This document shows positions 18,225 to 38,382 of a DNA stretch of 55,711 bases, piece after piece (position 1 is the stretch's first letter; the number at the start of each line of letters is the position of its first letter). The stretch is from positions 1 to 55,711 of the IMG/VR virus record IMGVR_UViG_3300032024_000424, one strand, 5' to 3'. Source of the DNA: a virus (Duplodnaviria > Caudoviricetes). Under the pieces are notes generated by a model. That model did no database searches, was not told where the DNA came from, and worked only from the letters and a program-made list of their open reading frames with translations. The translations under genes and the position numbers were made by a program.

Positions 18225-18309
18225 GGCGCGGTGTGGCGAGTCAAGGTATGGCGAGGTCCGGCTTGGTCGGGCTGGGTGGGGCGTGGTTGGGCAAGGCATG
18301 GCATGGTCT
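18225..18309 (+). ncRNA. GGY-NN pentamer array 1 (putative VIPR-type guide RNA)
   Basis: 17 in-register pentamers (16 GGC/GGT, one GTC). NN = GC GT GA AA AT GA CC TT CG TG GG GT TG AA AT AT CT. Confidence 0.85.
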
Positions 18310-18326: not shown

Positions 18327-18962
18327 ATGATAACGACAGCGACCCCCGGAAAACAAACAGCCGTCGGGCCTGAAGCGACCAACGGCGCGGCTGGCGCCAT
18401 CGAGGCGGGCATTCCCTACATCGTCGATGTATTGATCGAAGGTGTCGCTGACCTGCTGTTCCACCGGTGGAATTGTGAAGCGGTGGCGGAGAAGGCCAAC
18501 GCCGCCAAGGGCAGCGCGGCCAAAAAGCGCGACGACATCGAATCGTACCTATACCGCAACGACGCGGGTGAAATCTGCCTGCCGGGCGAGTACGTGCGGC
18601 AGGCGGTCATCGGCGCGGCCAAATATCGCCAGGACCCGCGCAGCCCCCGCAAGAGCGCCACCGACCTGTTCAAGGCGGCGATTGTGTCGCTGACGCCCCT
18701 GGTGGGTCTGGGGATCGAATCACATCATTATGAACATCGGTGCCGCGTAACCGTCCAGCGCAGCGGCATCACGCGGATCCGGCCCGCGATCAAGAGCGGC
18801 TGGAGGGCGGAGATGTCGTTTCTGGTGAACCTGCCGGAATACATCGCGCCACAGATGCTGCACGAAGTGCTGACACAAGCCGGCCAATTGATCGGTGTGG
18901 GAGACTTCCGCCCGACCTACGGCCGCTTCCAGGTCCGCCGATTTGAAGTACGGCCAACGTAA
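18327..18962 (+). CDS. Cas7/RAMP-like protein 1 (Vipr-like)
   Basis: 211 aa; DLLFH, YRN..EICLPGE, RIRP, C-terminal G-loop AGQLIGVGDFRPTYGRF. AAGGA RBS directly after array 1. Confidence 0.8.
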   Translation: MITTATPGKQTAVGPEATNGAAGAIEAGIPYIVDVLIEGVADLLFHRWNCEAVAEKANAAKGSAAKKRDDIESYLYRNDAGEICLPGEYVRQAVIGAAKYRQDPRSPRKSATDLFKAAIVSLTPLVGLGIESHHYEHRCRVTVQRSGITRIRPAIKSGWRAEMSFLVNLPEYIAPQMLHEVLTQAGQLIGVGDFRPTYGRFQVRRFEVRPT

Positions 18963-18971
18963 CACTTCTCT

Positions 18972-19090: not shown

Positions 19091-19159
19091 TTCTTTTAGA
19101 TGTCGAGATAAGCAACAACGGACCGTGACGCGAACCCAAACAACCGAGAGGCACGACGC

Positions 19160-19978: not shown

Positions 19979-19981
19979 TCC

Positions 19982-20443
19982 ATGGCCCATCTAAACGGCT
20001 TTGACGCGACCCAGGTGGAGCCCACAACCCCGTTCGAGCCGCTGCCGGCCGGGAAGTACGTAGCCTGCATCACGGCCAGCGAGATGAAAGCCACCAAGCA
20101 GGGAGACGGCAGCTATTTGCAGCTTGAACTCACCGTGCTCGAGGGCGAGTACAAGGGCCGCAAGGTATGGGACCGGCTGTGTCTGAACCACAGTAATCCC
20201 AAGGCGGTGCAGATCGCGCGGGGTACGTTGTCGGCGCTGTGCAGAAGCATCGGCGTTCTTCAACCTCGAGATTCGGCGGAGTTACACAACGTACCGCTGA
20301 TTGTCTCGGTTAAGTGCAAGAAGCGTAACGACACCCAGGAGATCGCTAACGAAATTGGTGGTTATGAATCGAAGTCCGCTGCGGTGCCGGACGCTTCCCG
20401 CCAGGCACCGGTGAACAATCAGACACCGCCCTGGAAACGCTGA
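19982..20443 (+). CDS. DUF669 phage ssDNA-binding protein
   Basis: FEPLPAGKY, GEYKGRKVWDRL, C-terminal PPWKR. Confidence 0.85.
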   Translation: MAHLNGFDATQVEPTTPFEPLPAGKYVACITASEMKATKQGDGSYLQLELTVLEGEYKGRKVWDRLCLNHSNPKAVQIARGTLSALCRSIGVLQPRDSAELHNVPLIVSVKCKKRNDTQEIANEIGGYESKSAAVPDASRQAPVNNQTPPWKR

Positions 20444-20497
20444 TTATCACCGATAAACAATCGTCGTGACTTGTTACAGCAGCGCGCGTTAAAGACT

Positions 20498-20600
20498 GGC
20501 TCGGCGCGGCATGGCTGGCCCAGGCGCGGTGTGGCGGGGTGTGGCATGGCCAGGCCCGGCAAGGCATGGCGCCCGCGCCGGTGGAAACACGGGCGCGGGC
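20498..20600 (+). ncRNA. GGY-NN pentamer array 2 with 3' GAAA hairpin (putative guide RNA)
   Basis: 15 pentamers (one GCC variant). NN = TC GC AT TG CA GC GT GG GT AT CA CC AA AT GC. Followed by GCCCGCGCCGGTG-GAAA-CACGGGCGCGGGC (20571-20600). Confidence 0.85.
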
Positions 20601-20629
20601 CATTCGGGAACCTCTACAGAGGCATCAGC

Positions 20630-21247
20630 ATGAACAAGCCAACCGCGATCGGCCCGGCAGTCACGAATGGGGCCGCGACCGCAATCGAATCCTCTTTACC
20701 CTACCGCATCGCAGTCACTATCCGCGGCGATTCGGACCTGCTGTTCCACCGCTGGAACTGCGAGGCGGTCGCGGCCAAGGCCAAGGCGGCCAAGGGCTCG
20801 GCGGCCAAGAAGACGGACGACGTCGAGTCCTATGTGTACCGCAACGACGACGGCGAACTGTGCATCCCGGGCGAGTACCTGCGTCAGGCGATCATCGGCA
20901 CCGCTAAGTTCCGCCAGGACCCTCGCTCGGCACGCAAGTCGGCCCAGGACCTGGTCAAGGCAGCTGTGATCAGCCTGACGCCGCTGGCGAGTTTGGGCGT
21001 CCGAGACTGGGACTACGAACACCGCTGCCGGGTCCAGGTGCAGCGCGCCGGTGTGACCCGCGTGCGGCCCGCGATCGCGGCCGGCTGGTCAGCCAGTTTC
21101 GTCTTCCTGGTCAATCTGCCCGAGTACGTGTCGCCGCAGATGCTCCACGGCCTGATCAGTGACGCGGGCAGGCTCGTCGGGATCGCGGACTTTCGTCCGA
21201 CCTACGGGCGATTCCAACTTACATGTTTCGAGATGCTCACCGACTGA
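20630..21247 (+). CDS. Cas7/RAMP-like protein 2 (Vipr-like)
   Basis: 205 aa paralog of 18327-18962; shares DLLFHRWNCEAVA, RQDPRS, YEHRCRV, DFRPTYGRFQ. Confidence 0.8.
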   Translation: MNKPTAIGPAVTNGAATAIESSLPYRIAVTIRGDSDLLFHRWNCEAVAAKAKAAKGSAAKKTDDVESYVYRNDDGELCIPGEYLRQAIIGTAKFRQDPRSARKSAQDLVKAAVISLTPLASLGVRDWDYEHRCRVQVQRAGVTRVRPAIAAGWSASFVFLVNLPEYVSPQMLHGLISDAGRLVGIADFRPTYGRFQLTCFEMLTD

Positions 21248-21248
21248 A

Positions 21249-21290
21249 CCCGACGCTACCACTGACAACACGCCGCCCTGGAAGCGCTGA
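21249..21290 (+). repeat. Orphan duplicate of the DUF669 gene 3' end
   Basis: Encodes PDATTDNTPPWKR*; ACGCCGCCCTGGAAGCGCTGA versus ACACCGCCCTGGAAACGCTGA at 20423-20443. Confidence 0.8.
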
Positions 21291-21329
21291 TCCACTTCCT
21301 CAGCTTCAAACACCACAAAGGACCCACCC

Positions 21330-21566
21330 ATGAGCCTGTTCGTCTCCCTATTCATCCTCTGGATCATCTGCGTGCCGGCGTGCTACCTGCTCCTACGCGA
21401 GGACCACATCGCGGCGACGCAGGGCCGATGGACGCAGATCGACCGCCTCTTCTGGCTGGGCATCTCGCTGGTCTACGGACCGGTCATGCTCATCGCTATA
21501 GTCGGTGTCGCGGTGTTCAACCGGCTCAGCGCTTCGAAGTGGGGCCAGCGCGAGGCCCGCTGGTGA
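21330..21566 (+). CDS. Small membrane protein
   Basis: Two hydrophobic segments; AAGGA RBS. Confidence 0.7.
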   Translation: MSLFVSLFILWIICVPACYLLLREDHIAATQGRWTQIDRLFWLGISLVYGPVMLIAIVGVAVFNRLSASKWGQREARW

Positions 21567-21805
21567 GGCTCGTCCTGCCGTACCCGCCATCCGTGAACCA
21601 CTACTGGCGCAGCTACCGCGGCCGGGTGGTACTGAGCGCCGAAGGCCGAGCTTACCGCGAGGATGTCTGCGACCTCCTGGCCACCGCCCCCGCAATGGGC
21701 GGCAACGGCCCGCGCAAGCCGCCCTCTGGCGGGCGGATCGCGCTGGGCATGGACGCGTTCCCGCCGGATCGGCGGAGGCGTGATACAGACACTGAACTCA
21801 ACTGA
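21563..21805 (+). pseudogene. rusA: Truncated RusA-family resolvase
   Basis: LPYPPSVNHYWR...FPPDRRRRD, then stops where the D-L-D-N motif and C-terminal half are expected. Confidence 0.75.
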
Positions 21806-21808
21806 ACG

Positions 21809-22618
21809 ATGAAGTTGCAACCGACCCTTACTTGCCAGTCGTGCGGAGTGGAGGCCATACGCACCGGGCCCACCCAGCGTTATTGCCGCGTCTGCTCGGA
21901 GTCGCGCGACTTCCTGCGGAAACGCCGCTGGGCGAGGCAACACGTGCCGAACGAGGAACAGCGGCGTCGGACTGGCGCGGGCCGTCGTCGCCGTACAGAG
22001 TTGGCCCGCGAGGCGGGCCGGCTCATCAACCGCCGGCACTGCCGATCGACGGATTGGAATTCCGGGGGCGCCGACAGGCCGCTTCTCTGGCGGGTGTGCG
22101 CCGCCGTGCCGTTCTCTTACGCGGCGTCGAAGAACCACATCTACGCGCTAACGCTCAAGAAAGGGCATGTGGCACTTCGCCGGGAGTCGAGGGCGTTGCG
22201 CGGCCGTATCACCGCGGCACTCCGGGCCGCGATCGGGGGTCGGCGCGTGGCGCACAACAAGGTCTGGATCGATGTGCTCGTTCAGAAGCCGAACCACAAG
22301 GGCGACGCGGTCAACGTGGTCGACCTGGTGTGCGACGCGGTGAAGGACGCGCTGCCCGTGGATGACCGCTGGTTCTGCATCCGCCGGCTGGACTGGGAGG
22401 TCTGCAAGAACGACGGCCAACTGATCGTCGGCGTCGGGCAGGAGTCCGATGCCGACAGCCAGGTGTGTTCCTATTGCGGCCTGATCAGGCCGCTGGCGGA
22501 GTTCAATGTCTCGCGGCATCAACCGCTTGGGGTGGGACGCGAGTGCAAACAATGCCGCCGGGAAGGCCGGCTACTCGCCAAGCAGAAGAACCCGCAGGAC
22601 ACGGGGGTGGCGGCATGA
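21809..22618 (+). CDS. Zn-finger-flanked divergent RusA-like nuclease
   Basis: CQSC/CRVC at the N-terminus; VPFS..SKN, GDAVN...DAVKD..VDD core; CSYC/CKQC at the C-terminus. Confidence 0.6.
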   Translation: MKLQPTLTCQSCGVEAIRTGPTQRYCRVCSESRDFLRKRRWARQHVPNEEQRRRTGAGRRRRTELAREAGRLINRRHCRSTDWNSGGADRPLLWRVCAAVPFSYAASKNHIYALTLKKGHVALRRESRALRGRITAALRAAIGGRRVAHNKVWIDVLVQKPNHKGDAVNVVDLVCDAVKDALPVDDRWFCIRRLDWEVCKNDGQLIVGVGQESDADSQVCSYCGLIRPLAEFNVSRHQPLGVGRECKQCRREGRLLAKQKNPQDTGVAA

Positions 22619-24337
22619 CCACGGGGGTCTCACCCTCCCAATCGATCCAACTCCGCCCCTACCAGGCCGAAGCAGTTAACGCGGTGTACGAGCATCTGCG
22701 CACGCGGGACGACAATCCCTGCGTGGTGATCCCCACCGCGGGCGGAAAAACCCCCGTGATGGCCACCATCTGCCGCGACGTGGTCCAGCAGTGGGACGGC
22801 CGGATCCTCATCCTCGCGCACGTGAAGGAACTGCTCGATCAGGCGGCCGACAAGCTGCACACCATGGCGCCGGACCTCTGGAACCGGATCGGCGTCTACT
22901 CGGCGGGTTTGAAAAGCCGCGACACGGACCACCCCATCATCGTCGCCGGGATCCAGAGCGTGTACCGCCGCGCGTGCGACCTGGGCCGCTTCGACCTGAT
23001 CCTCCTGGATGAATGCCACATGCTTCCGTCCGACGGCGAGGGTATGTACCGCGCGTTCCTAGCAGACGCGAAGGTGGTCAATCCGAACGTCCGCCTGATC
23101 GGCCTGACCGCCACGCCCTACCGCATGACCACGGGCACGATCTGCGGCCCGCCGCCCGATCACCTGCTCAACCACGTCTGCTACGAGGTGGGTGTGCGCG
23201 AGCTGATTGTCCAGGGCTACCTCTGCCCGCTGAAGACCAAGGCCGGCAAACGCAAGGCCGACTTCCAGAACCTGCACCTGCGAGGAGGTGAGTTTATTCC
23301 GGGGGAGGTCGAGGCCCTGATGGACGAGGACGGGCTTGTCAGCTCGGCGTGTTACGAGATCATCGAGCACACCAAGGACCGCCGCTCGGTGCTGATCTTC
23401 GCGGCGGGCGTCAAGCACGCTCAGCACGTGCAGCGCATCCTCAACGGCCTGGGCCACGAGTGCGGCTTCGTCTGCGGCGACACGCTGCCGTTCGACCGAA
23501 CCGAGACGCTCGAGCGCTTCAGATCCGGGGGCCTGAAGTACCTGGTCAATGTCAACGTGCTGACCACCGGCTTCGATGCCCCCGGAATTGATTGTGTGGT
23601 GTTGCTGCGCCCCACGAACTCGCCCGGCCTCTACTACCAGGCGGTTGGTCGTGGATTCCGCCTGCACCCGTCGAAGGAAGACTGCCTCGTTCTGGACTTC
23701 GGCGGCAATATCCTGCGCCACGGGCCGGTTGATGCGCTGCAGATCAAGGACCGCGCCCAAGGTAATGGCGATGCGCCGGCGAAGGAGTGCCCGCAATGCC
23801 AGACGGTGGTCCACGCCGCGTACAGCGTCTGTCCGGAGTGCGGCTTCGAGTTCCCGCCGCCCGATCGCCAGAGGCACGAGCGCGCGCGAGGCGGCCACGG
23901 TGGGCATCCTCAGCGGCGAAGTGACGGAGACGGAGTACGAGGTACAGGACGTCTATTACTCGGCGCACACCAAGCGCGGTGCCCCGGAAGGTCATCCCCG
24001 CACACTGCGGGTGGATTACTGCGTGGCGTTGGGCGATTACCGCAGCGAGTGGGTCTGCGTCGAACACCCGTCCGGCAGCTTCGCGCGGCAGAAGGCGGAT
24101 GCGTGGTGGCGGGCGCGGTCAAGTGAGCCGTGCCCGACCGATGCCGACGCGGCCGCCGAGTTGGCCACTGCCGGGGCGCTGGCTAAGAGCCGGGCGATCA
24201 CCGTGCGCAGCGTGACCGGCGAGAAGTACGACCGCATCGTCGCGCACGAACTCGACGAGGTCCCGCAGGCCGTGGGCGACTTAGCGGGCGGCGAGCCGGA
24301 CTACGTGCACATCCCCGACGAGGAAATCCCGTTCTGA
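22615..24337 (+). pseudogene. SF2 helicase (RadD/YejH-like), frameshifted near 23881-23888
   Basis: LRPYQ, PTAGGKT, DECH, LTATP, TTGFDAP, GRGFR, CPQC/CPEC. The plausible C-terminus ending DEEIPF is in another frame. Confidence 0.8.
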
Positions 24338-26610
24338 TGCTGGCCGACCACGCTGTATCCTACCTGCGGGCCGGCCTCTGCGTCCTGCCCGCCAAGCGCC
24401 TCGAGAAGCGCCCGGCTATCGGCGCGTGGAAGCAATACCAGAAGCGCGCGCCCACGGAGGCCGAGTTGTCGGCGTGGATGGCCAACCCCCGGAATCACCC
24501 CGACGCGGTCTGCATCCTGTGCGGAGCCGTCTCGGGCCACCTCGAGACCCTCGACTTCGACGCCGGCGGCGAACGGTTCGCGGCGTGGTGGGACCGCATC
24601 CCCGCCGCGTTACGCGACAGGCTCGTGGTCGAGACCACCCCTTCCGGCGGCATGCACGTGGTCTACCGATGCGCGGCGCCGGTCTGCGGCAACCTGAAGC
24701 TGGCGCAGCGCAAGGTCGGCAAAGAGGTCGAAACGCTCATCGAGACACGCGGCGAGGGCGGCCTGTTCCTGTGCGCGCCGACCCTGGGTTACATCCTCGC
24801 CCACGGCGACCTGTGCGATCTGCCCGTGCTCACCGAAGCAGAACGCGACGTCCTGCTCCAGGCGGCGTGGGAGCTGAACGAGTACATGCCGGCTGTGGTC
24901 GATGCCCCTGTCCGATCGTCAACTGCCGGGCAACTGCGCGCCGACGGGTGCGCGAGCGCCGACAGGCCGGGTGACGACTTTAACACCCGCGGCGACCCCC
25001 GGGTGGTGCTCGAACAGCACGGCTGGTCCCGCGTGGGTGGCGGCGAGAACGAATACTGGCGGCGCCCGGGCAAGGCCTCGGGTTGGTCGGCGACACTCAA
25101 AGAATGTTCCGGGGGCGGCGTGTTCTATGTGTTCAGCTCGAACGCGGCACCGTTCGAGCCCAACCGGGCCTATTCGCCGTTCTCGGTGTACGCGCTACTC
25201 AACCACGGCGGCGACTTCGAGCAGGCGGCGAGGTCGCTACGCGCGGCCGGCTACGGTAGCGACCTGCGGGGTGATGAACACCCGGGGGTGGACATCTCCG
25301 GCATCCTCGGCCAGGTCGACGGCAACGGTGCTGATCACGCCGGCGACGATGACGGTCAGCGTGACATCGCCGACCCCGGCCCGATCCCCGAATCCCTGTT
25401 CCGTGTGCCCGGCTTCGTGTCGCGGGTGATGGAGTTCACCCTGGCCAACGCGCCCTACCCGAACGTGGGCTTGGCGTTCTGCGGGGCCGTGGCGCTTCAG
25501 TCCTACCTCTGCGGCCGCAAGGTCTGCGACAGCGGTGACCTGCGCCCGAACCTCTACCTGCTGGCGCTGGCCAGCTCGGGCACGGGTAAGGACTTCCCAC
25601 GAAAGGTCAACGCCCGCGTGCTCTTCGAGGTCGGACACGTCGCGGCGCTGGGCGATAAGTTCGCCTCGGGCGAGGGCATCCAGGACGCCCTGGCCCGCAC
25701 CAGCGCCATGCTCTTCCAGAACGACGAGATGGACGGCGTGCTGCGGCAGATCAACCTCGACCGCGAGAACAAGCGCGAGTCGATCCCCAACGTCCTGCTG
25801 ACGCTCTACACCTCCGCCGCCGACGTGTACCCCATCCGCGTCAAGGCCGGGCAGAAGGAAGCGGCGCACATCGACCAGCCGCACCTGACGCTCTTCGGCA
25901 CCGCCACGCCGCAGTACTTCTACGAGTCGCTCAGCCAGCGGATGCTCACCAACGGCTTCTTCGCCCGCCTGATCATCGTGGACATCGGCAAGCGAGGCGA
26001 AGGCCAGACACCCGGAAGTGCCCGGCAACTCCCTGAACCGGTCGTGCAGGCCGCGCGCTGGTGGGCGGAGTTCCAGCCCGGATCGCGCCGTGCGAACCTG
26101 CTGGAGGTTCATCCCGAGCCCAGGGTCGTGCCCGCAACACCCGAGGCGCAGGAGGCGATCAGGGCGCTACAGCGCCAGACCGAGCGGGAGTACGACGCCG
26201 CGCACGAACGCAACGACGAGGTCGCGCGCGTCGCGTGGAGCCGCACGCTGGAGAACGCCAAGAAGCTGGCGCTGATCTACGCCTGCAGCGAGAACCACGA
26301 GGACCCGATCATCGGTCTGCCCGCGGTGGAATGGGCGCGGACGTTCGCTATGCACCAGACGCGCAGGCAGCTGTACCTGGCGGGGAGCTACATGGCCGAG
26401 AACCCGTTCCACGCCGAGTGCCTGAAACTGATGCGGAAGTTAAAAGCAGCGCCCGACCAAAGGATGGACCACAGCAGCCTCTTACAGCGCATGCACACCA
26501 AGGCAACGGATTTCCGCGAACTGATCCAGACGCTGGTGCAGCGCGGCGAGATCGAAGTGATCACAACCCCAAGGGCCGGGAGCCACAAGGTGGAGTATCA
26601 CGTTCTATGA
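24337..26610 (+). CDS. Bifunctional primase-polymerase + DUF3987 helicase-like protein
   Basis: KRP..WK.YQ, LDFD, TPSGGMH, ETRGEGG; ASSGTGKD P-loop. Confidence 0.85.
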   Translation: MLADHAVSYLRAGLCVLPAKRLEKRPAIGAWKQYQKRAPTEAELSAWMANPRNHPDAVCILCGAVSGHLETLDFDAGGERFAAWWDRIPAALRDRLVVETTPSGGMHVVYRCAAPVCGNLKLAQRKVGKEVETLIETRGEGGLFLCAPTLGYILAHGDLCDLPVLTEAERDVLLQAAWELNEYMPAVVDAPVRSSTAGQLRADGCASADRPGDDFNTRGDPRVVLEQHGWSRVGGGENEYWRRPGKASGWSATLKECSGGGVFYVFSSNAAPFEPNRAYSPFSVYALLNHGGDFEQAARSLRAAGYGSDLRGDEHPGVDISGILGQVDGNGADHAGDDDGQRDIADPGPIPESLFRVPGFVSRVMEFTLANAPYPNVGLAFCGAVALQSYLCGRKVCDSGDLRPNLYLLALASSGTGKDFPRKVNARVLFEVGHVAALGDKFASGEGIQDALARTSAMLFQNDEMDGVLRQINLDRENKRESIPNVLLTLYTSAADVYPIRVKAGQKEAAHIDQPHLTLFGTATPQYFYESLSQRMLTNGFFARLIIVDIGKRGEGQTPGSARQLPEPVVQAARWWAEFQPGSRRANLLEVHPEPRVVPATPEAQEAIRALQRQTEREYDAAHERNDEVARVAWSRTLENAKKLALIYACSENHEDPIIGLPAVEWARTFAMHQTRRQLYLAGSYMAENPFHAECLKLMRKLKAAPDQRMDHSSLLQRMHTKATDFRELIQTLVQRGEIEVITTPRAGSHKVEYHVL

Positions 26611-26624
26611 AAGCCCTTCCCACG

Positions 26625-26875
26625 TTTAACCCAGATTTAGCAGGTTTAGCAAATCGGCCGGGCTTGACCGCCCAAAACGCCTCCAGGCTTAGCAGGTTTG
26701 ACACCAGGTTTAACACGGGCCCGCTAAACGTGGGAATCGCCCTAAGTATAGTAATAGTAATAACTCACACTCTCTCTTCTCTCACCTTTAGCACTTTAAC
26801 CCCCACCCCCTCTCATATGGGGTTTTAGGCCCCCGCGCGTTCGCGCGAGGGGTGTGTTAATCGAGACCTGCTAAA
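26625..26875. promoter_or_regulatory. Candidate replication origin
   Basis: TTAGCAGGTTT direct repeats (26637, 26689), inverted ACCTGCTAAA (about 26866) and an AT-rich tract, directly after the primase gene. Confidence 0.5.
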
Positions 26876-26904
26876 GCAGCCTCTACCAACCCGAAAGGAT
26901 TCAC

Positions 26905-27213
26905 ATGACCACGACCCCGTCCTGCGTCGACTGCCGCTACTTCGTACCCGAGGGGCGCCTACACAACGATCTCGATGAAGAAGAAGCCGCACGCCCCGAC
27001 CGCGTGGATGGCGAATGCCGGCGCCACTGCCCGACTCTGGGCCCGATGCTCACTGATCGGCACGGCGACGAGTTCCGCCACTACGGCGAATGGCCAAAGG
27101 TCATGGGCTGCGATAGCTGCGGCGAGTTTCGACTACGCGAACGCGCAGCGCAGCACGCGCCGCAGCCAATCGAAGACGCGTCGTGCGCGTGCGCAGAGCG
27201 CGCCGCTTCGTAA
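26905..27213 (+). CDS. Small Cys-rich hypothetical protein
   Basis: CVDCRYF, GECRRH.P, WP.V..CDSCGEF; AAGGA RBS. Confidence 0.7.
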   Translation: MTTTPSCVDCRYFVPEGRLHNDLDEEEAARPDRVDGECRRHCPTLGPMLTDRHGDEFRHYGEWPKVMGCDSCGEFRLRERAAQHAPQPIEDASCACAERAAS

Positions 27214-27454
27214 CAGGTCGCACACGTTGGCCCGTGTTGCGCCGGGCGCGCGCGGTCGTACACCACTACGACCAACACAGCGCGCCAACACGGGCGAACG
27301 TGGGCGATCGAGTGGGGTGCCAGTATGGCAGGATTTGAATAGGTACTTCCGTGTACCGACTGCCAGAATGGCACGGGAACGCGTCGGTTGTGGAGGAAGA
27401 GTTTGTATGGGACGCGCCGATTTTGGCGCTCCCCTGATGAGGAGCACTAAATGC

Positions 27455-27744
27455 ATGGATGCCAAGGAGATACGGGCAGCATGGCGGCCACGGCGGCTGC
27501 CAGCGGGGCCTGTGTCGCCACTGCGGCGGGCTGTTCTATGTGACCCGCTCCGACGGCCGTGACTGCCGGCCGACGTGTCGCCAGCAGGCGTACCGGACGA
27601 CGACGCCCCGCACCGCACGCCCGCCACTCAACAACACCAAAGGACGGACACAACCGCTGTCTCATCGAGCCCCGCAACATTGACGGCATCCGCTTGCTTG
27701 AGCGGAACCTGCGAATCAACGAGCCAGCGGTCGAAGCCGCCTGA
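27455..27744 (+). pseudogene. Probable frameshifted Zn-finger gene
   Basis: GAGGAG RBS; MDAKEIR, CRHCG..TRSD..C...CRQQAYR and ...AVEAA* lie in different frames. Confidence 0.4.
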
Positions 27745-27787
27745 GGGGCACGTTGGGTTTTGAAGGTCGCCGGGGATCGCATCGGTG

Positions 27788-27895
27788 GGCGTGGCATGGC
27801 ATGGCGCGGCGGGGCCAGGCACGGCCGGGCTGGGTAAGGCGCGGCGCGGCATGGACAGGTCCGGCGGGGGTAACGCCCCGGCGGGCCGTTGGACC
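27788..27895 (+). ncRNA. GGY-NN pentamer array 3 (orphan putative guide RNA) with 3' hairpin
   Basis: 13 perfect GGY pentamers. NN = GT AT AT GC GG CA AC CG TG AA GC GC AT, then GGACA and a GGTCCGGCGG...CCGTTGGACC stem. Confidence 0.8.
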
Positions 27896-27922
27896 GGATC
27901 ATTCAAACATGGAGGTTTGCTT

Positions 27923-30151
27923 ATGCAGGTGAGCTTGTGGCCGATTGAGCGTGTGAAGCCGTATGAGAACAACCCCCGCGTTGTGGAGAAGGCGGTGGAG
28001 CCGGTGGCCCGATCCATCCAGGAGTTCGGCTGGCGTCAGCCGCTGGTGGTGGACGAAGAGGGCGTGCTGATCGTGGGCCACGTTCGGCTGCTGGCCGCCC
28101 GGAAGCTCGGCCTGAAGGAGGTGCCGGTCCACGTCGCCACCGGCCTTTCGCCGGAGAGGGTCCGCGCCTACAGGCTTGCCGACAACAAGACCGGCGAGCT
28201 GGCTAAGTGGGACATGGATATCCTGCCCATCGAGCTGAACGAGCTGCGTGAGGGTGGATTTGATATGGGGGTGCTGGCGTTTGATGACGAAGAACTGGCG
28301 AAGCTGATCAACGCGGCGGCGGGTGTCACGGAGGGGCTGACCGACCCTGACGAGGTGCCCGAGCCGCCCGACGACCCGATCACGCAGCGCGGGGACATCT
28401 GGGTGCTCGGCGACCACCGCCTCATGTGCGGCGACTCGTCGAAGGCCGAGGACCTGGACCGTCTGCTGGACGGCGCGAACATCGACCTGTTTGCGAGTGA
28501 CCCGCCCTATAACGTCCGTGTCGAACCTCGCAGCAACAACGCGATCGCGGCGGGCAACTCCTCGTTCAAGGCGTCGGGCAAGAAGGCTGGTTCCGGGGGT
28601 GTTTCCGGGGGTGTTTCCGGGGGCGGCGGCCACCATCAGAAGATGGACCTGGCCCGCCACCCGGGCAAGGCCAAGGGCACGCACAAGCAGATGCGGGCCA
28701 AGGACCGGCCGCTCGCCAACGACTTCGTCCCCCCGGAAGTTTTCGACGAGATGCTGTTAGCTTGGTTCGGCAACGCGTCGCGCGTGCTCAAGCCCGGCGG
28801 CTCGTTCTACATCTGGGGCGGCTACGCCAACCTCGGCAACTACCCCGGCCCGCTGAAGGCGGCGGGCCTGTACTTCAGCCAGGGGATCGTCTGGGACAAA
28901 CAGCACCCGGTGCTGACGCGCAAGGACTTCATGGGCGCGTTCGAGCTGTGCCAACCGCCCGACACGAAGGTCATGACACCCGCGGGAGAATCGCGACTCA
29001 GCGCACTTTGTGATGACGATGAGGTAGTGACATTCGCCAAGAGTTCCGGCGCAATCATCGGTCACCGGCGTGGTCCGAAGGTTCGGGTCGGCACGCGTCA
29101 TTACGGCGGCCCGCTCTACGGCGTCACGGCTGAGGCAAAGACCACTTGGTGCACCGATGGTCACCAGTTCAGCGTCAGGCTGGCGCCTCATGTTCGCAAT
29201 GTCTGGTGCGTGTATCTCATGCGGCGTGGGCGGTGGTGGCGTGTTGGCAAATCAAAGCTCCTGACCACGTGGGGGCTTGGGGTGAAGCAGCGCCTGGAGA
29301 AGGAAGGGGGTGAGGAGGCGTGGATTCTCAGCACCCATATGTCAAACACCGAGGCGGCCTGCGCGGAGCAGATCGTTTCGGCCCGCTACGGAATCCCCAC
29401 GACGTATTGGACCGAAACGAAAAGTTCCAAGCGCACGCACTCGCAGATCGCTCGCATCTACGAGCGGATTGATCCGATGGCGCTGCACCGAAGCGCGCTG
29501 TGGGCGCTATCCGACTATCACCGCCGAATCGAATATCCGTTCATTGAGCGGCAAAACACCCGGCCCAAATATGGCCGTCGCGTTTCCTTCGTCACCCGTG
29601 CCTGCAACCTGCTGCCGGGCGTCATGGAATTGCCCGTTCCCACTGGGGGCCCACACTATCGGTGGACGCCGATTCGCCACGTCGATGTGCAGGATTACAG
29701 CGGGCAGGTCTACTCACTCGATGTGGCAAAGCACCACCACTATATCGCCGACGGCATGGTCACGCACAACTGCTTCTACGGCTGGAAGGAGGGCGCGGGC
29801 CACCACTTCTACGGCCCGAACAACGCGACCGACCTCTGGCACGTCAAGAAGGTGAACCCGCAGAGCATGGTCCACCTGACCGAGAAGCCGGTCGAGCTGG
29901 CGGTGCGCGCGATCCAGTACTCGTCCAAGCCCGGAGAAAACGTGCTGGACCTCTTCGGTGGCAGCGGCTCGACGCTGATCGGCTGCGAGCAGACGGACCG
30001 GCGTGCGTTCCTGATGGAGATCGACCCGGCGTATTGTGACGTTATTGTCCAGAGGTGGGAGCAGTTCACGGGGAAGAAGGCGGAGCGGACCGAGGCCGGC
30101 ACACCAGGCGATGCGGCGGCCGAGCCCGTGGGTGCGGAGGCTTCCTCATGA
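27923..30151 (+). CDS. ParB-like domain + N6/N4 DNA methyltransferase, intein-containing
   Basis: PYENNPR, GHxR, ADNKT; DPPY; HLTEKPVEL; DLFGGSGST. GGAGG RBS before ATG 27923. Confidence 0.92.
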   Translation: MQVSLWPIERVKPYENNPRVVEKAVEPVARSIQEFGWRQPLVVDEEGVLIVGHVRLLAARKLGLKEVPVHVATGLSPERVRAYRLADNKTGELAKWDMDILPIELNELREGGFDMGVLAFDDEELAKLINAAAGVTEGLTDPDEVPEPPDDPITQRGDIWVLGDHRLMCGDSSKAEDLDRLLDGANIDLFASDPPYNVRVEPRSNNAIAAGNSSFKASGKKAGSGGVSGGVSGGGGHHQKMDLARHPGKAKGTHKQMRAKDRPLANDFVPPEVFDEMLLAWFGNASRVLKPGGSFYIWGGYANLGNYPGPLKAAGLYFSQGIVWDKQHPVLTRKDFMGAFELCQPPDTKVMTPAGESRLSALCDDDEVVTFAKSSGAIIGHRRGPKVRVGTRHYGGPLYGVTAEAKTTWCTDGHQFSVRLAPHVRNVWCVYLMRRGRWWRVGKSKLLTTWGLGVKQRLEKEGGEEAWILSTHMSNTEAACAEQIVSARYGIPTTYWTETKSSKRTHSQIARIYERIDPMALHRSALWALSDYHRRIEYPFIERQNTRPKYGRRVSFVTRACNLLPGVMELPVPTGGPHYRWTPIRHVDVQDYSGQVYSLDVAKHHHYIADGMVTHNCFYGWKEGAGHHFYGPNNATDLWHVKKVNPQSMVHLTEKPVELAVRAIQYSSKPGENVLDLFGGSGSTLIGCEQTDRRAFLMEIDPAYCDVIVQRWEQFTGKKAERTEAGTPGDAAAEPVGAEASS
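28949..29770 (+). mobile_element. Intein (274 aa) with GIY-YIG-like insert
   Basis: Starts CQPPDTKV; TDGH block B; VYSLDV..HHYIADGMVTHN followed by extein Cys. Removal restores FEL-CFYGWKEG. Confidence 0.9.
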
Positions 30152-30387
30152 TCTTCCACCCGCGGGTCAATCAGCGAGTGCGCGTCCATTACACCCGCCG
30201 AGCGGCGGCGCACATGCCGCTGCACGGCAAGGTGGGCGTGGTGCGGGTCGTAGCTACAGGACGGGGCCCGCGTAACGTGGGCGTCGAGATCGACGGCCGT
30301 GTGTTCGTGATCCCCCGCGGCAATCTTGTGGCCGTGCCGGAGAAAACCTCGACCGGTCAGGCCGAGGTGGAAGGGATGGGCAAGTGA
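30148..30387 (+). CDS. Small KOW/SH3-like hypothetical protein
   Basis: Overlaps the MTase stop; HGKVGVV..GPRNVGVEIDG. Confidence 0.6.
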   Translation: MIFHPRVNQRVRVHYTRRAAAHMPLHGKVGVVRVVATGRGPRNVGVEIDGRVFVIPRGNLVAVPEKTSTGQAEVEGMGK

Positions 30388-30392
30388 TGGAG

Positions 30393-30763
30393 TCAGTATG
30401 GCGCTTCGGCCAGGTACATGAACTCGATCATGGCGTCTTCGTAGAGCGCGCCGGAGGCGGGGTAGGTGCGTCGCATGCGGACCTCGACGCAGCCGCGTTC
30501 CTTCATGAAGGCCAGCGCGACGTTGACCTGCGTGAAGGGCGCATCCATCGCCTGGGCGAGTTCCTCGAGCGTCGTGCCGCCCGCCGCGTGCTCCTCGATG
30601 GTGAATGCGACCTCGCGGAAGATGTGGCGGGTGCAGCGGTGGAGGTAACCTCTGTCCGGGGCGTCGGGGAACGAAACCTTCATCTCAAGGTGGTCGTCCA
30701 CACCACGTCGAAGGTCACGACTCTATTCCGGGGGCGGTTCCGGGGGCGGGGGTGGGTTGCCAT
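30393..30763 (-). pseudogene. Small HTH-like protein, likely 2-nt frameshift near 30702
   Basis: ATG 30763 (after AAGGAG) reads MATHP..VTFDVV; the continuation DDHLEMKV is out of frame. Confidence 0.5.
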
Positions 30764-31231: not shown

Positions 31232-32275
31232 TCACGCTCCTTTCCGGGTCTGGAACCGGCCGCGCTCGGCTTTCTGGAACCGGGCGTCTTTGCCCTTCTT
31301 CTGCAGCTCGCGGAGGATCGCGCTGTAGAGTGTCGCGTGCGGCGTCTTGCCACCGCTGCGGGGCGACCAGAGGTTCTGCTTGGTGATCTTCTCGATCATC
31401 TCCTTAGTGTTCATGGGTTCCTTGGCATTGCCGAGGACCTGCACGGCCGCGTCGATGAGGCTCATGGGGCGGGGCTTGGCGCTGGTCTTCTTATCGCCGC
31501 TCGTGTGGGTCATCCACTTGCCGAGGCTGATGCCGATGGCGGACGACGTCTTGCCGGTCGCGGCCTTGACCGCCTGGCGGACCGCGTCGGCGCCGGTGTG
31601 CAGCAGCGCGGCACCATCGCTGCGGTAGCCGTCACCGTCGAGTGCCGTGGTCGCCTTGACCTTCCACACGGCGGGCGAGCCGTTGTGCTCGCGGAAGTAG
31701 AGTTCATAGATGACGCCGTTACGGCCGAAGGCGATGTGCCCGTGGCTGACCGGCAGGTCGGCGATGGCCTTGGCCAGAGCGTCGCGGTCGGCCCGCGTCT
31801 CGGCGGACACCCGGCCCTTGGCGCCTGGCGTCTTCGGCTTTGTCGAGGTGGCCATCGCCCGTTCACCCCCGGATGTGCCCCCGGATATGCCCCCGGATGT
31901 GGCGGTCATGCCGTCGCTGCTCTTGGCCCGCTCGCCCCCGGAACCGCGGACCCGTGCGTTATTCCGGGGGTCTTGATCGGCATCCGTCTGGGCCCGCAGC
32001 CCGGCAGAGCGGGCTTTGCGCTCGGCGGCGGTGAGCTTCTTCTTGATCGGCGGCTTCGCGCCGGGCTTCGCGTTGCCGGCGTCCGCGTCCGTGACGGGAG
32101 CGCTCACGCGGCCGCGCAGGCGCTGGGCGCTCTTGATGCGGATTTGCTTGTTTGTCACCAGGTTGGTGGCGTCCCATCCCCCTCGCGGGTTCACCTTGTC
32201 GATCCGCACGGGCACGACCTTGTCGCTGACCTTGGCGGTGTACGTTTCGCCGATCTTGATCTCGTCTTTCTTCAC
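31232..32275 (-). CDS. HARE-HTH (HB1/ASXL-type winged helix) protein
   Basis: SLIDAAVQVL..PM..KEMIE..GKTPHATLYSAILRE..RF.K.ERG.F. Confidence 0.8.
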   Translation of the reverse strand: MKKDEIKIGETYTAKVSDKVVPVRIDKVNPRGGWDATNLVTNKQIRIKSAQRLRGRVSAPVTDADAGNAKPGAKPPIKKKLTAAERKARSAGLRAQTDADQDPRNNARVRGSGGERAKSSDGMTATSGGISGGTSGGERAMATSTKPKTPGAKGRVSAETRADRDALAKAIADLPVSHGHIAFGRNGVIYELYFREHNGSPAVWKVKATTALDGDGYRSDGAALLHTGADAVRQAVKAATGKTSSAIGISLGKWMTHTSGDKKTSAKPRPMSLIDAAVQVLGNAKEPMNTKEMIEKITKQNLWSPRSGGKTPHATLYSAILRELQKKGKDARFQKAERGRFQTRKGA

Positions 32276-33405: not shown

Positions 33406-33612
33406 TCAGTCCTTGGCGAGGCGGTCGCGCGTCCAGTCCTCCAAGCCGTGCCGCTTGGCGAGCCGGGCGACGCGCTGGCCCAGGGCGTCGAGTCGGCGTT
33501 TCCGCGCCGCGGCCCAGCCGGTTTGGCCCGCGATCAGGGCGTCGGCGTATCGCCCGGCCAGGGCGTCGTGCTGCTTTAGGAGGGTTCGAATCCGTGTCTT
33601 GGCGTTGGTCAT
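33406..33612 (-). CDS. Hypothetical protein
   Basis: AAGGAG RBS; first gene of the minus-strand cluster. Confidence 0.55.
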   Translation of the reverse strand: MTNAKTRIRTLLKQHDALAGRYADALIAGQTGWAAARKRRLDALGQRVARLAKRHGLEDWTRDRLAKD

Positions 33613-33741: not shown

Positions 33742-33951
33742 ATGACCGCCGAATCCTTAAAAATCACGGCCCTGACGCCCGCCCAGGCCGCCCAGGTCCT
33801 CGCCACCGCCTACAAGCGGCGGATCGACGAGGCCCAGGTCCGCCGGGTGGCCGAGGAAGGCCAGTTGCTGCGCGCCGACGGCACGTTCAGCCTGATCGAA
33901 TACGTGGCCTTCCTGGCCCAAGAGGTAACGAATGCCCCCGCCCCCGGATAA
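33742..33951 (+). CDS. Small DNA-binding protein (possible terminase small subunit)
   Basis: Precedes the terminase; ADGTFSLIEYVAFL echoes TVDLFRYAAWL in the terminase N-terminus. Confidence 0.55.
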   Translation: MTAESLKITALTPAQAAQVLATAYKRRIDEAQVRRVAEEGQLLRADGTFSLIEYVAFLAQEVTNAPAPG

Positions 33952-36301
33952 CACCCCGCCCCCGGGTAACACCCCGCCCCCGCCCCCGGGTAAAGCTCCC
34001 GCCGCGATCAACCCGCGCCGGCTGCGCCCCGCCGACCTGTTACGCCTGGTCAACGCCACCGACATCGCCCAGGCCGGCGATTCCGGGGCTTCCGGCGGTG
34101 TGCTGACCGAGTTCCAGCTGCGCCGCCACCGCAATCGGGCGGGGTACACCATCGGCGATGCGCGCACGGTGGACCTGTTCCGCTACGCGGCCTGGCTGAC
34201 GCTCGAGTACTTTAAGCCGAAGTCTCGGAATGAACCGCTCACCTACGCCGAGCAGAAAGCCCGCCAGGCGGAGCGCAACGCCGAGGCGGTCCGCGCCGCC
34301 CAGGACATCGGCGAGATCCCCGCCGTCACCGACCCCGAACGCAAGGCGCGGTGCGGCAACGTGCCCGGGGGCTTCCGCGCGTTTTGCGAGACCTACTTCG
34401 CCGAGGTGTTCTACTTCGACTGGTCGCCGGACCATCTGCGTGTGATCGACAAGATCGAGAAGGCGGTGCGCACTGGCGGCCTCTTCGCCATGGCCATGCC
34501 TCGAGGATCGGGCAAGACCGTGATGTGTCAGACGGCGGTGCTGTGGTCGGCGCTGATCGGCGCGACGCCTTTTGTGTGCCTGATCGCCGCCAGCGCGGAG
34601 CGGGCCCGGGACCTACTCGAGAACATCAAGGTCTGGCTCGAGACCAACCCGCTCTTGGCGGAAGACTTCCCCGAGGTGACGTACCCGATCAAGTGCCTGG
34701 AGCGCATTACTAACCGGCAGAAGGGCCAGAAGTACCGGGGCGAGCCCACGCGGATCGACTGGTCCTCGGACCGCATCGTCCTACCGACGATTGCCGGGTC
34801 GAAGGCTTCCGGGGTGGTGATCTCCAGTTCGGGCATGAAGGGCAGCGACATCCGCGGGCAGAACTACGCCCGCGCCGACGGGCAGGTGGTGCGCCCGCAG
34901 TTGGTGCTGGTCGACGACCCGCAGACGACCGAGTCGGCGTGGTCGCCCTCGCAATCCCAGCGGCGCGAGGCGATCCTGGCCGGCGACGTATTAGGCATGG
35001 CCGGACCGGGCAGGAAGATCGCGGGGCTGATGGCCTGCACGGTGATCCGCCCCGGCGACATGGCGGACAACATCCTCGACCGCGACAAACACCCCGAGTG
35101 GCAGGGCGAACGGACCAAGATGGTCTACGCCTTCCCGTCTGATGAGAAACGCTGGGCCAGATATGCCGAACTGCGCGCCGACTCGCTGCGCAACGACGGC
35201 GACGGGTCGGAGGCGACCGCGTTCTACCGCGCCAACCGTGAGGCGATGGACGCCGGCGCTATCGTGGCCTGGCCGCAGCGCTTCAACGAGGACGAGCTGT
35301 CCGCCGTCCAGCACGCGATGAACCTCAAGCTGCGCGACGAGGCCGCGTTCTTCGCCGAGTACCAGAACGAGCCCATCGTCGAGGCCGTCGGCGAGGAGAT
35401 GCTCACCCCGGAACAGATCGCGGCCAAAACCAACGGCTACCCCCGGAACGGGGTTCCGTTGGGCTGTAACTACCTGACCATGTTCATCGACGTGCAGCAG
35501 CGGGTGCTGTTCTGGATGCTCTGCGCTTGGGAGGAGAACTTCACGGGCTACATCGTCGACTACGGCGCCTGGCCCGAGCAGCGCCGGTCGTACTACACCC
35601 TCAACGACCTCACCGCCACGCTCGGCCGGGCTATTCCGGGGGCGGGGGTGGAAGGGCAGATCTACGGCGGGCTTGAAAAACTCACCGCCGAACGCCTGGG
35701 CCGGGTCTACCGCCGCGAGGACGGCGCGGAGCTGCGGGTCGACCGCTGCCTGATCGACGCCAACTGGGGCCAGAGCACGGACGTGGTCTACCAGTTCTGC
35801 CGGCAGAGCACGCACGCAGGTCTATTGCTGCCCAGCCACGGCAAGTACGTCGGCGCTTCGAGCGTACCGTTTAGCGAGTACCGGCGCAAGCGCGGCGACC
35901 GCGTCGGCCTGCACTGGCGCATTCCGAGCACCATCGGCAAACGACAAGTGCGGCACGTGCTGGTCGACACCAACTACTGGAAGACCTTCGCGCACGCGCG
36001 CCTGGCGGTGGCGATGGGCGACCCGGGGTGCCTGTCGCTGTTCGGACACGACGATAAAACGCACCGGATGCTGGCCGACCACCTGACCGCCGAGTACCGG
36101 GTCAAGGCGACAGCGCAGGGCCGCACCGTCGACGAGTGGAAGCTCCGCCCCACCCGGCCGGACAACCACTGGCTGGACTGCCTGGTGGGCTGCGCCGTGG
36201 CGGCGTCGATCCAGGGCGCATCGCTGCCGGGCGTCGAACTGCGTGCGACGGTGGCCCGGCCGCGTGTGCGACTATCTGAGCTACAAGGGAGCAGGCGGTA
36301 G
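33932..36301 (+). CDS. Terminase large subunit (GpA-like)
   Basis: MPRGSGKT Walker A, LVLVDDPQ Walker B, FIDVQ, DNHWLDC nuclease. Confidence 0.9.
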   Translation: MPPPPDNTPPPGNTPPPPPGKAPAAINPRRLRPADLLRLVNATDIAQAGDSGASGGVLTEFQLRRHRNRAGYTIGDARTVDLFRYAAWLTLEYFKPKSRNEPLTYAEQKARQAERNAEAVRAAQDIGEIPAVTDPERKARCGNVPGGFRAFCETYFAEVFYFDWSPDHLRVIDKIEKAVRTGGLFAMAMPRGSGKTVMCQTAVLWSALIGATPFVCLIAASAERARDLLENIKVWLETNPLLAEDFPEVTYPIKCLERITNRQKGQKYRGEPTRIDWSSDRIVLPTIAGSKASGVVISSSGMKGSDIRGQNYARADGQVVRPQLVLVDDPQTTESAWSPSQSQRREAILAGDVLGMAGPGRKIAGLMACTVIRPGDMADNILDRDKHPEWQGERTKMVYAFPSDEKRWARYAELRADSLRNDGDGSEATAFYRANREAMDAGAIVAWPQRFNEDELSAVQHAMNLKLRDEAAFFAEYQNEPIVEAVGEEMLTPEQIAAKTNGYPRNGVPLGCNYLTMFIDVQQRVLFWMLCAWEENFTGYIVDYGAWPEQRRSYYTLNDLTATLGRAIPGAGVEGQIYGGLEKLTAERLGRVYRREDGAELRVDRCLIDANWGQSTDVVYQFCRQSTHAGLLLPSHGKYVGASSVPFSEYRRKRGDRVGLHWRIPSTIGKRQVRHVLVDTNYWKTFAHARLAVAMGDPGCLSLFGHDDKTHRMLADHLTAEYRVKATAQGRTVDEWKLRPTRPDNHWLDCLVGCAVAASIQGASLPGVELRATVARPRVRLSELQGSRR

Positions 36302-36874: not shown

Positions 36875-38382
36875 TGTGGCCGTTCCGCAGGAGGTCAGGG
36901 AAGACCACCCCCGGCAAGCGGTCCCTTCCGGTGACGTTGCGGGCCCGTTACGACGCGGCGCAGACCACCGCCGACAACGCCCGGCACTGGGCAATGGCCG
37001 ATGCCCTGTCGGCCGACGCCGCGGCCGCGCCGGGTGTCCGCAAGAAGCTGCGCGAACGTGCCCGCTATGAGGTGGCCAACAACAGCTACGCCAAGGGCAT
37101 CGTGCTGACACTCGCCAACGACTGCATCGGCACCGGCCCGCGCCTGCAACTGCTCAGCGACGACGCCGAGACGAACAACCGTGTCGAGAAGGCGTTTGCC
37201 CAGTGGGCCAGGGCGGTCAACCTGGCCGGGAAGCTGCGGGCCATGCGGATGGCCAAGGCGACCGACGGCGAGGTGTTCGCTGTGCTCACCGATAACCCGC
37301 ATCTTGACTCGCCCGTCCAGCTCGACGTGCAGTTAGTCGAGGCCGACCGCGTGGCGTTCCCCTGGTTCGCGGGCGCGCCGCTACATCCAGATGTCAGCGT
37401 ACTTCCCGGGGTCGACGGCGTGATCCTTGATCGCTTCGGCAACCCGCTAACCTACACCGTCCTGCGTCAGCACCCGGGCGACCCCCCCGGAAGTTCCCCC
37501 GGAAGTTCCCCCGGAAGGTGGACAGGCGGAGACTACGACGAGGTGCCCGCTGACGCCGTGATCCACTGGTTCCGCGCGGACCGGCCGGGCCAGCACCGGG
37601 GTGTCCCCGAGATCACGCCGGCGCTGCCGCTCTTCGCCCAGTTGCGCCGCTACACGCTGGCGGTGATCGCCGCCGCCGAAACCGCCGCGGACTTCGCGGC
37701 CGTGCTCTTCACCGACGCCCCGGCCAACGGTGAAGCGCAAGCGCTTGAGCCCATGGACGTGGTGGAACTCGAGAAACGCATGGCCACGGTGCTGCCCGAC
37801 GGTTGGCGGCTCGGGCAGATCGAGGCGCAGCAGCCGGCGACCGGGTACGCGGAGTTCAAGCACGAGATCCTCAACGAGATCGCACGGTGCCTGAACCTGC
37901 CGTTCAACGTCGCCGCCGGCAACAGCGCCGGCTACAACTACGCCTCCGGCCGGCTGGACCACCAGACCTACTTTAAGTCCATCCGCGTCGAGCAGGCGCA
38001 CCTCGCCGAGACGGTGCTCGACCCCATACTGACCGCCTGGCTCGATGAGGCGGTGCTGATCAACGAGTTCGCGTCGCTGCGCAACGCGGGCAGACCGGCA
38101 CATCAGTGGTTCTTCGATGGCACGGAGCACGTCGACCCGGCCAAGGAGGCCAACGCCCAGGCGACGCGGTTAGCCAGCAACACCACCACGCTCGCCGCCG
38201 AGTTCGCCCGGCAGGGCAAGGACTGGGAAGTTGAATTGCGCCAGCGTGCCAAGGAGCAGACGCTGATGAAAGAGTTGGGCTTGTCAATGGCGCCCGCGCA
38301 GGACCCAACCGCACCCACCGAAGATGAAGTCGAAGAGGAGACCGACACGGATGCCCTCCCAAGCGCACCAAACAACCAATGA
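36874..38382 (+). CDS. Lambda-family portal protein
   Basis: RYDAA, LRERAR, DGEVF, RPGQHRGVP, NYASGRLD, VDPAKE. Confidence 0.92.
   Translation: MWPFRRRSGKTTPGKRSLPVTLRARYDAAQTTADNARHWAMADALSADAAAAPGVRKKLRERARYEVANNSYAKGIVLTLANDCIGTGPRLQLLSDDAETNNRVEKAFAQWARAVNLAGKLRAMRMAKATDGEVFAVLTDNPHLDSPVQLDVQLVEADRVAFPWFAGAPLHPDVSVLPGVDGVILDRFGNPLTYTVLRQHPGDPPGSSPGSSPGRWTGGDYDEVPADAVIHWFRADRPGQHRGVPEITPALPLFAQLRRYTLAVIAAAETAADFAAVLFTDAPANGEAQALEPMDVVELEKRMATVLPDGWRLGQIEAQQPATGYAEFKHEILNEIARCLNLPFNVAAGNSAGYNYASGRLDHQTYFKSIRVEQAHLAETVLDPILTAWLDEAVLINEFASLRNAGRPAHQWFFDGTEHVDPAKEANAQATRLASNTTTLAAEFARQGKDWEVELRQRAKEQTLMKELGLSMAPAQDPTAPTEDEVEEETDTDALPSAPNNQ

Follow-up and report, generated by a model that had tools for sequence, protein, structure and literature searches.

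The window analysed here is the whole of the IMG/VR record IMGVR_UViG_3300032024_000424, a single contig of 55,711 bp (the whole assembly, 64% G+C) with the gene content of a tailed phage. Directly 5' of its ParB-N/N6_N4 DNA methyltransferase gene lies, on the + strand, a tract of twelve perfect pentameric units in a GGY-NN register (27788-27847), referred to here as array 3. Its units are GGCGT GGCAT GGCAT GGCGC GGCGG GGCCA GGCAC GGCCG GGCTG GGTAA GGCGC GGCGC, and its NN series is GT AT AT GC GG CA AC CG TG AA GC GC. An earlier sequence-only reading of this DNA had given this position and this series, and direct reading of the letters confirms both. Tandem Repeats Finder calls the tract at 27788-27850, with a period of 20 and a score of 63. 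Judged from sequence comparison, the segment 27788-27905 is very probably a vrRNA gene belonging to VIPR (Viral Interference Programmable Repeat), with the ParB-methyltransferase gene of relatives as its predicted target. This is not a new mechanism; array 3 would be a further member of an already described family.

The match between guide and target ends at four degenerate units that follow the perfect ones. They contain an 'ATGG' junction that likewise terminates two other arrays of the phage (A1 and A2) and the arrays of three related loci (L017, L029, L078). A GC-rich tail hairpin follows (2 of 200 shuffles reach an equal folding), with CATTC at 27900-27904 on its 3' side, and this layout of ATGG[A/C], GC hairpin and CATTC recurs after A2 and after the syntenic array of L017. 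No T-run terminator was found at the tail of array 3, and Rfam at gathering thresholds gave no match in the window. Array and hairpin stand within the leader of the methyltransferase gene, 18 nt 5' of its ribosome-binding site. An open frame starting at GTG 27785 runs through the array into this gene, so that array 3 could be a translated N-terminal extension of the methyltransferase or, alternatively, a chance G-rich tract. Either is scarcely conceivable. Relatives align from residue 1 of the protein that starts at ATG 27923, which is preceded by a GGAGG ribosome-binding site, and array 3 is therefore intergenic; the N-terminal extension that the sequence-only reading had named as fatal to its own proposal is thus not what lies here. 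Moreover, the 55.7-kb genome holds three GGY-NN arrays of at least five units, every one on the + strand and co-oriented with the genes, versus one such array in total in 20 block-shuffled genomes, and repeats of this type border the vipr genes of related loci.

VIPR systems were first reported in 2026, chiefly in phages of Escherichia and Pseudomonas, and are treated in three bioRxiv preprints. It consists of a RAMP protein, Vipr, and of vrRNAs (bioRxiv 10.64898/2026.04.26.720920, 10.64898/2026.04.26.720927). Each vrRNA carries 9-16 YNNGG repeats and a structured 3' tail (bioRxiv 10.64898/2026.04.26.720920). In the filament that Vipr forms along the RNA, every GGY is hidden and every NN exposed (bioRxiv 10.64898/2026.04.26.720920, 10.64898/2026.04.26.720927), double-stranded DNA being read with a one-base skip, usually at the wobble position, and the outcome is transcriptional silencing of competing phages, prophages and satellites (bioRxiv 10.64898/2026.04.26.720920). 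Solo vrRNAs that use Vipr in trans, and whose self matches fall below their matches to rivals, have also been described (bioRxiv 10.64898/2026.10.15.759431).

Array 3 follows this reading rule. Its NN pairs equal codon positions 1 and 2 of VIIAGHTRWKAA (V-I-I-A-G-H-T-R-W-K-A-A) at all 24 bases in the ParB-methyltransferase genes of relatives, as expected from the earlier proposal that the series spells codon prefixes of a ParB motif. The best score of 200 unit-order shuffles over 2.94 Mb was 20/24, which also speaks against a chance tract. Comparison covered 81 related loci (80 IMG/VR loci encoding a phrog_4652 homologue and the GenBank phage locus L001) and 70 loci fetched by homology to the resident methyltransferase, 63 of which were examined. 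The closest of these 63 carry G-VIIAGHTRWKAA-KKLG, and all 12 codons are matched by array 3 in nine loci. The target sites begin in frame, 141 nt (47 codons) into the gene. With a 1-nt skip, a 13-unit series of array 3 scores up to 25/26, and 53 of 151 loci reach at least 80%, the criterion for a natural target (bioRxiv 10.64898/2026.04.26.720920, accessible part), whereas skips of 0, 2 or 3 nt give at best 19-20/26, equal to shuffles, and no locus at 80% or above. Each of the 53 matches lies on the coding strand and keeps the reading frame of the gene, and the third base of the codons differs from match to match. A quintuplet-like decoding of the pentamers as NNG or NNC codons was rejected: by hand count it yields 9/12 and 10/12 against the consensus versus 12/12 for codon prefixes, and the NNG reading also breaks at D and S in L025.

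Searching for the exact 24-base pattern, the check proposed along with the sequence-only reading, returned 40 IMG/VR stretches and 32 bacterial-genome stretches, and all 72 sites lie in frame in ParB-methyltransferase genes. The genes common to the phage and these 72 target loci are the primase-polymerase (43 loci), the helicase (29 loci) and the exonuclease, Sak4 and SSB genes (10-13 loci). Within the 1-15 kb fetched around them, a vipr match was found in none of the 72 and GGY-NN arrays in one; no GGY-NN array occurs within the 3-kb flanks of the 63 methyltransferase-relative loci. Given these shared genes and the absence of vipr, the predicted targets are likely VIPR-less sister phages and prophages. 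By record titles, 28 of the 32 genomic stretches come from Planctomycetota, a count in which Phycisphaerae and Planctomycetia are presumed to belong to that phylum, and the host of the phage is probably a member of Planctomycetota. A single complete Planctomycetes chromosome, CP087563.1, holds 12 exact sites, in copies that are 72-98% alike over their aligned parts. They sit in 12 diverged prophage-like elements (among L199-L223) whose methyltransferase measures about 460-490 amino acids where its frame is complete; a primase-polymerase homologue is found in 10 of the 12 elements, and the exact 24-base target is kept in all.

The resident methyltransferase gene belongs to the targeted family (PF01555, 1.1e-23; phrog_498, 4.5e-120; ParB_N, 6e-05, below cut-off). 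Its N6_N4 methylase domain is split in two, with a weak Intein_splicing match at residues 579-616 (E 1.3e-05, below cut-off). Codons 28064-28099 encode VLIVGHVRLLAA, as read earlier, and differ from the guide at 5 of the 12 codons of a strongly conserved motif. Against the 13-unit series, the resident site (28061) matches at 17/26 NN bases (65%). The best self match of array 3 scores 19/26, at 33543 on the - strand, and no self site reaches 80%. This best self site lies at 33505-33540 on the - strand, in a small open reading frame (33406-33612), and reads ALIAGQTGWAAA, with 8/12 codons matched; chance may explain it, or it may be a weak decoy or weak self site.

The sequence-only reading had taken the gene downstream of the array for its target. 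That part did not hold, the resident gene scoring below 80% against 25/26 or 24/24 in other phages and prophages. A related possibility is that vrRNA3 autoregulates its own methyltransferase, either by binding 28064-28099 or by acting as a structured 5' leader. The placement of array and hairpin so close to the ribosome-binding site would suit such a role, as would the same syntenic arrangement in L017, and the resident site is the second-best self match, its 7/12 codons being reached within the methyltransferase by only 1 of 2000 unit-order shuffles. Nevertheless, a guide for its own gene should match that gene best, whereas the self match is 65% in the window and 68% in L017, against foreign matches of 96-100% and 91%, respectively. 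In addition, perturbing NN pairing abolished silencing, and no self match of at least 80% occurs in the sets given in the accessible part of the preprint (bioRxiv 10.64898/2026.04.26.720920). Autoregulation is accordingly judged improbable.

The gene order at 16.7-30.2 kb comprises a sigma-like gene, a PD-(D/E)XK exonuclease, a phrog_4652 gene, a Sak4-like ATPase, a DUF669 SSB, a second phrog_4652 gene, an SF2 helicase, a primase-polymerase and the methyltransferase with its intein-like insert. Both phrog_4652 genes are vipr paralogs and the only RAMP-like genes in the phage, with recombination and replication genes as neighbours, and each has its own array upstream. A profile of 33 phrog_4652 proteins matches one solved structure, PDB 36pp_D ('SUSP1 Vipr protein', E 1.2e-09). 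The AlphaFold model of a vipr paralog (pLDDT 85.7) finds as top Foldseek matches Csm3/Cas7 proteins of type III-A and type VII CRISPR complexes (E 2.3e-07), among 129 matches at E <=0.001. Array 3 as the guide of a Cas7-like protein, as first suggested, would fit this predicted RAMP fold and the profile match. No match for the vipr paralogs was found in NCBIfam, and megablast of 17400-30200 against GenBank phages returned none. The earlier remark that no Cas7-like gene is adjacent to array 3 stands: the paralogs lie 6.5-9.5 kb upstream and, since no RAMP gene adjoins array 3, they would have to act in trans. They are 66% identical to each other, and tblastn in the fetched stretches of the 81 related loci gave one copy of more than 150 amino acids in 80 and none in one. 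As a speculation, the second, diverged vipr copy may be an insurance against rivals' guides that target vipr, as an array of L027 spells the C-terminus of relatives' Vipr.

Based on the preprints, the segment at about 27788-27905 would be transcribed and processed into a vrRNA made of twelve GGY-NN repeats and the hairpin tail. One or both Vipr paralogs would polymerise on it in trans, burying each GGY and presenting each NN as in the published mechanism. The filament would then pair with double-stranded DNA through its NN bases, leaving out one target base in three, to form a gapped R-loop or a triplex on the rival gene, and transcription of the rival ParB-methyltransferase would be blocked. 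The guide would thus be a weapon against sister phages and resident prophages, while the resident allele would presumably be spared.

Compared with type II VIPR of Escherichia phage SUSP1 and a Pseudomonas fulva prophage, as far as the accessible descriptions go, the system of the window shares GGY/NN pentamers within the 9-16 range, a small RAMP protein, a 1-nt skip that falls on the wobble base, predicted targets in elements of competing phages and the lack of self matches of at least 80%. The 12 units of array 3 can be set beside the 12 resolved protomers of the SUSP1 filament. Unlike type II VIPR, its protein is only distantly related, two vipr paralogs occur in one phage, no obvious vap gene is present, and vipr lies within a Sak4-SSB-helicase-primase module; the tail of array 3 is a stable hairpin rather than a pseudoknot, the predicted vrRNAs are scattered over the genome, next to the phage's own member of the gene family at which each would be aimed, and the likely host is a member of Planctomycetota. 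With the solo vrRNAs, array 3 has in common the absence of an adjacent vipr, the presumed use of Vipr in trans, the lower self match and wobble-aligned targets in conserved coding sequence (bioRxiv 10.64898/2026.10.15.759431, accessible part). Solo vrRNAs, however, are those of VIPR-null phages and satellites, whereas the window phage is VIPR-positive and array 3 is dispersed in a genome that would supply its own Vipr. Its predicted target is also the ParB-methyltransferase of VIPR-less relatives rather than vipr, other vrRNAs, satellites or host repeats.

The RAMP fold found by Foldseek and, according to the accessible text of the VIPR preprints, a filament presenting the guide in periodic segments recall Cas7/Csm3 and crRNA of Class 1 CRISPR systems. 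In contrast to these, array 3 has no CRISPR repeats, contiguous spacer or other cas genes, its guide is hard-wired rather than acquired, and its period is 5 nt with 2 informative bases versus 6 nt with 5. Indeed, no CRISPR-type array (direct repeats with contiguous spacers) is in the tandem-repeat list of the window, and membership in CRISPR-Cas was rejected, as no direct-repeat/spacer array and no cas genes beyond the two RAMP-like vipr paralogs are found. A TRAP-like ring-protein site, G-quadruplex or R-loop tracts, iterons and an RNA-guided homing element were also considered, and the VIPR match explains the data better. Free-standing homing endonucleases of phages, which act in intronless homing and marker exclusion, recognise a conserved coding motif in relatives, tolerate wobble variation and adjoin a resident allele that they do not recognise. 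Their resemblance to array 3 is an analogy of layout only, since recognition by array 3 is predicted to rely on RNA and the published outcome of VIPR is silencing and not cleavage.

Arrays of this type are abundant in the clade. The 81 related loci contain 163 NNGGY arrays of at least 7 units, of which 162 share the strand of the gene and the longest has 142 units. In a count of 2716 units from related loci, every one of the 16 possible NN dinucleotides is represented, with Y being C in 1971 and T in 745. Further arrays in the clade also read out conserved stretches encoded by replication genes in other loci, such as VTDVGAGAGS (10/10), LCNVNVLTTGfD (11/12, the lower-case letter marking the unmatched unit), IVDLKT.. 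in the exonuclease and, for the L027 array, the C-terminus of the phrog_4652 protein. Compared with proteins of their own locus, arrays show no enrichment (mean best-of-12 score of 6.69 versus 6.55 when shuffled, 99 arrays). Compared with proteins of other loci, a score of at least 10 is reached by 9/88 real versus 3/88 shuffled arrays, and a 10/10 match by 4/154 real arrays versus 0/308 shuffles.

In the VIPR-positive relative L017, a separate array with an 'ATGGA' junction, a hairpin and CATTC stands directly 5' of the methyltransferase, the homologue beginning just after array and hairpin. The NN bases of this array differ from those of array 3 and read a variant of the ParB motif, V-I-I-C-G-H-T-R-F/L-K-V. 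This guide matches five other loci at 20/22 and 45 loci at 80% or more; its own gene gives 15/22, and the best of 50 shuffles reached 18. That its NN bases have changed and still read a ParB-motif variant argues for maintained selection. Other layouts were observed in the related loci. Very long uninterrupted GGY-NN tracts occur in L031 (142 units, 710 nt, 6301-7010) and in L024, L026, L028 and L054 (56-71 units); these greatly exceed the 9-16 units of one vrRNA and possibly correspond to the 'staggered arrays with overlapping vrRNAs' of bioRxiv 10.64898/2026.04.26.720920. In L078 (3160-3565), five arrays of 12-16 units stand downstream of vipr, separated by four copies of a conserved 54-nt repeat with a strong predicted hairpin (z -4.22). 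This layout resembles a CRISPR array, and the repeat has no Rfam family at E <=0.1. Similar intergenic elements at 2001-2082 and 2663-2747 of L031 have sub-threshold matches to the twister-P5 ribozyme (36.2 and 30.9 bits, gathering 37.6) and do not adjoin any GGY-NN array.

Several points weigh against the assignment of array 3 to VIPR as a working guide. The profile match to SUSP1 Vipr spans only about 75 C-terminal residues, which indicates a distant relationship. The SUSP1 vrRNA tail is a pseudoknot in the accessible description, whereas array 3 ends in a simple hairpin and A1 has none. No sigma-70-like promoter was found in a scan of 27400-28000, a result to be read with the phage's own sigma-like gene in mind. 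The first 70 methyltransferase-relative loci were chosen by homology to the resident methyltransferase, which is not the case of the later exact-pattern scans. Resident substitutions are in excess within the guide footprint of the methyltransferase at 90% conservation (p 0.034) and less so at 80% (p 0.13), which is only suggestive of a resident allele that diverged under selection to escape, and the same test is negative for the exonuclease (p 0.8) and for the SSB (p 0.26 and 0.71). Finally, depending on the mismatch tolerance of this clade, the guide may act weakly on the resident 16/24 site.

The lack of a promoter in that scan, the distance of array 3 from both vipr genes and its four degenerate 3' units could also point to a decayed or decoy vrRNA, either an unloaded relic or a sponge for the Vipr of rivals without useful silencing, and decoy-type solo vrRNAs are known from satellites (bioRxiv 10.64898/2026.10.15.759431, accessible part). 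Such a state is very unlikely for a tract of twelve consecutive perfect units that exactly matches a widespread natural site (72 occurrences), the more so as the syntenic copy in L017 has altered its NN bases and still reads a ParB-motif variant of other phages.

The two other arrays of the window appear to be aimed in the same way as the predicted vrRNA3. A1 has its best target in the exonuclease gene of L186 (28/34, versus 20/34 in its own genome). A2 matches the SSB gene of L037 at 27/30 and 20 loci at 80% or more, versus 18/30 for the own SSB. Four loci with an exact array 3 site (L159, L166, L180, L187) rank among the six best for A1 and likewise for A2, so that sites for each of the three guides occur together in at least four contigs of rivals. 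VIPR in this clade may be laid out as dispersed cassettes of a guide and a spared allele, in which each vrRNA stands beside the mismatched resident gene (exonuclease, SSB or ParB-methyltransferase) that it targets in VIPR-less sister phages and prophages; this proposal is tentative and on balance doubtful.

Codon usage in the resident SSB footprint (20228-20272, homologous to the A2 target) is unusual, with TTG, AGA, GTT, CTT, CAA, CCT, CGA and GAT. Only 8/15 of its codons end in G or C, versus 84% genome-wide (13,241 codons), AGA accounts for 14/993 Arg codons, and where a CTN codon would keep the NN match, TTG loses it. In the resident ParB site of L017, Arg is likewise written AGA and not CGN. 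These codons may reflect a synonymous escape through six-fold codons, the evidence being anecdotal.

Besides the GGY-NN arrays, the window contains short tandem repeats with a CCCCCGGA / TCCGGGGG core and periods of 9-24, in at least nine places and on both strands, some of them inside genes. The run GGVSGGVSGGGG within the methyltransferase gene is an example. The features of the window are collected in Table 1.

Table 1. Positions of array 3, its leader, the candidate partner genes, the companion arrays and other repeats in the window.
Feature	Position	Strand	Basis and remarks
Predicted vrRNA3, guide part (12 perfect GGY-NN units)	27788..27847	+	Direct reading; 24/24 NN match to relatives under the 1-nt skip rule
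Four degenerate units GGCAT GGACA GGTCC GGCGG ('ATGGA' junction and start of the 3' tail)	27848..27867	+	Direct reading
GC-rich tail hairpin	27854..27896	+	Folding: -31.3 kcal/mol, z -2.66
GGAGG ribosome-binding site of the methyltransferase gene	27911..27915	+	Direct reading; 7 nt 5' of ATG 27923
ParB-N / N6_N4 DNA methyltransferase gene with intein-like insert (resident mismatched copy of the targeted family)	27923..30151	+	PF01555, phrog_498
Resident ParB-motif codons VLIVGHVRLLAA, homologous to the target site (codon 48 onward)	28064..28099	+	16/24 NN bases match the guide; 7/12 codons
vipr paralog 1 (phrog_4652), candidate in-trans partner	18327..18962	+	phrog assignment, profile, 66% identity to paralog 2
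vipr paralog 2 (phrog_4652), candidate in-trans partner	20630..21247	+	phrog assignment, profile, AlphaFold/Foldseek
Predicted vrRNA1 array (A1), 17 units, 16 conforming	18225..18309	+	Between the exonuclease gene and vipr paralog 1; without hairpin tail
Predicted vrRNA2 array (A2), 15 units, 14 conforming, hairpin tail	20498..20572	+	Between the DUF669 SSB gene and vipr paralog 2
CCCCCGGA/TCCGGGGG-core repeats	28591-28623, 30726-30749, 31866-31901, 33936-34003, 37484-37517, 41520-41559, 42052-42115, 45740-45779, 51473-51500	both	Tandem-repeat list

The phage offers a clean and unambiguous natural target for a predicted vrRNA. It adds to the known examples a member of a distant clade, here with two vipr paralogs and guides spread over the genome, and a likely new host phylum. 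All three guides are predicted to aim at replication or recombination genes of VIPR-less sister phages, and the 12 diverged prophage-like copies that keep the exact site in one chromosome illustrate the benefit of skipping the wobble base. If the cassette proposal is true, tight linkage would keep recombinants from targeting themselves, and guide and resistant allele could spread jointly in co-infections, driving amino-acid change in conserved motifs. Neither this architecture nor this dynamic is described in the consulted portions of the three VIPR preprints (bioRxiv 10.64898/2026.04.26.720920, 10.64898/2026.04.26.720927, 10.64898/2026.10.15.759431). The case bears on self/non-self discrimination in VIPR, on mismatch tolerance and on the joint travel of guides and spared alleles.

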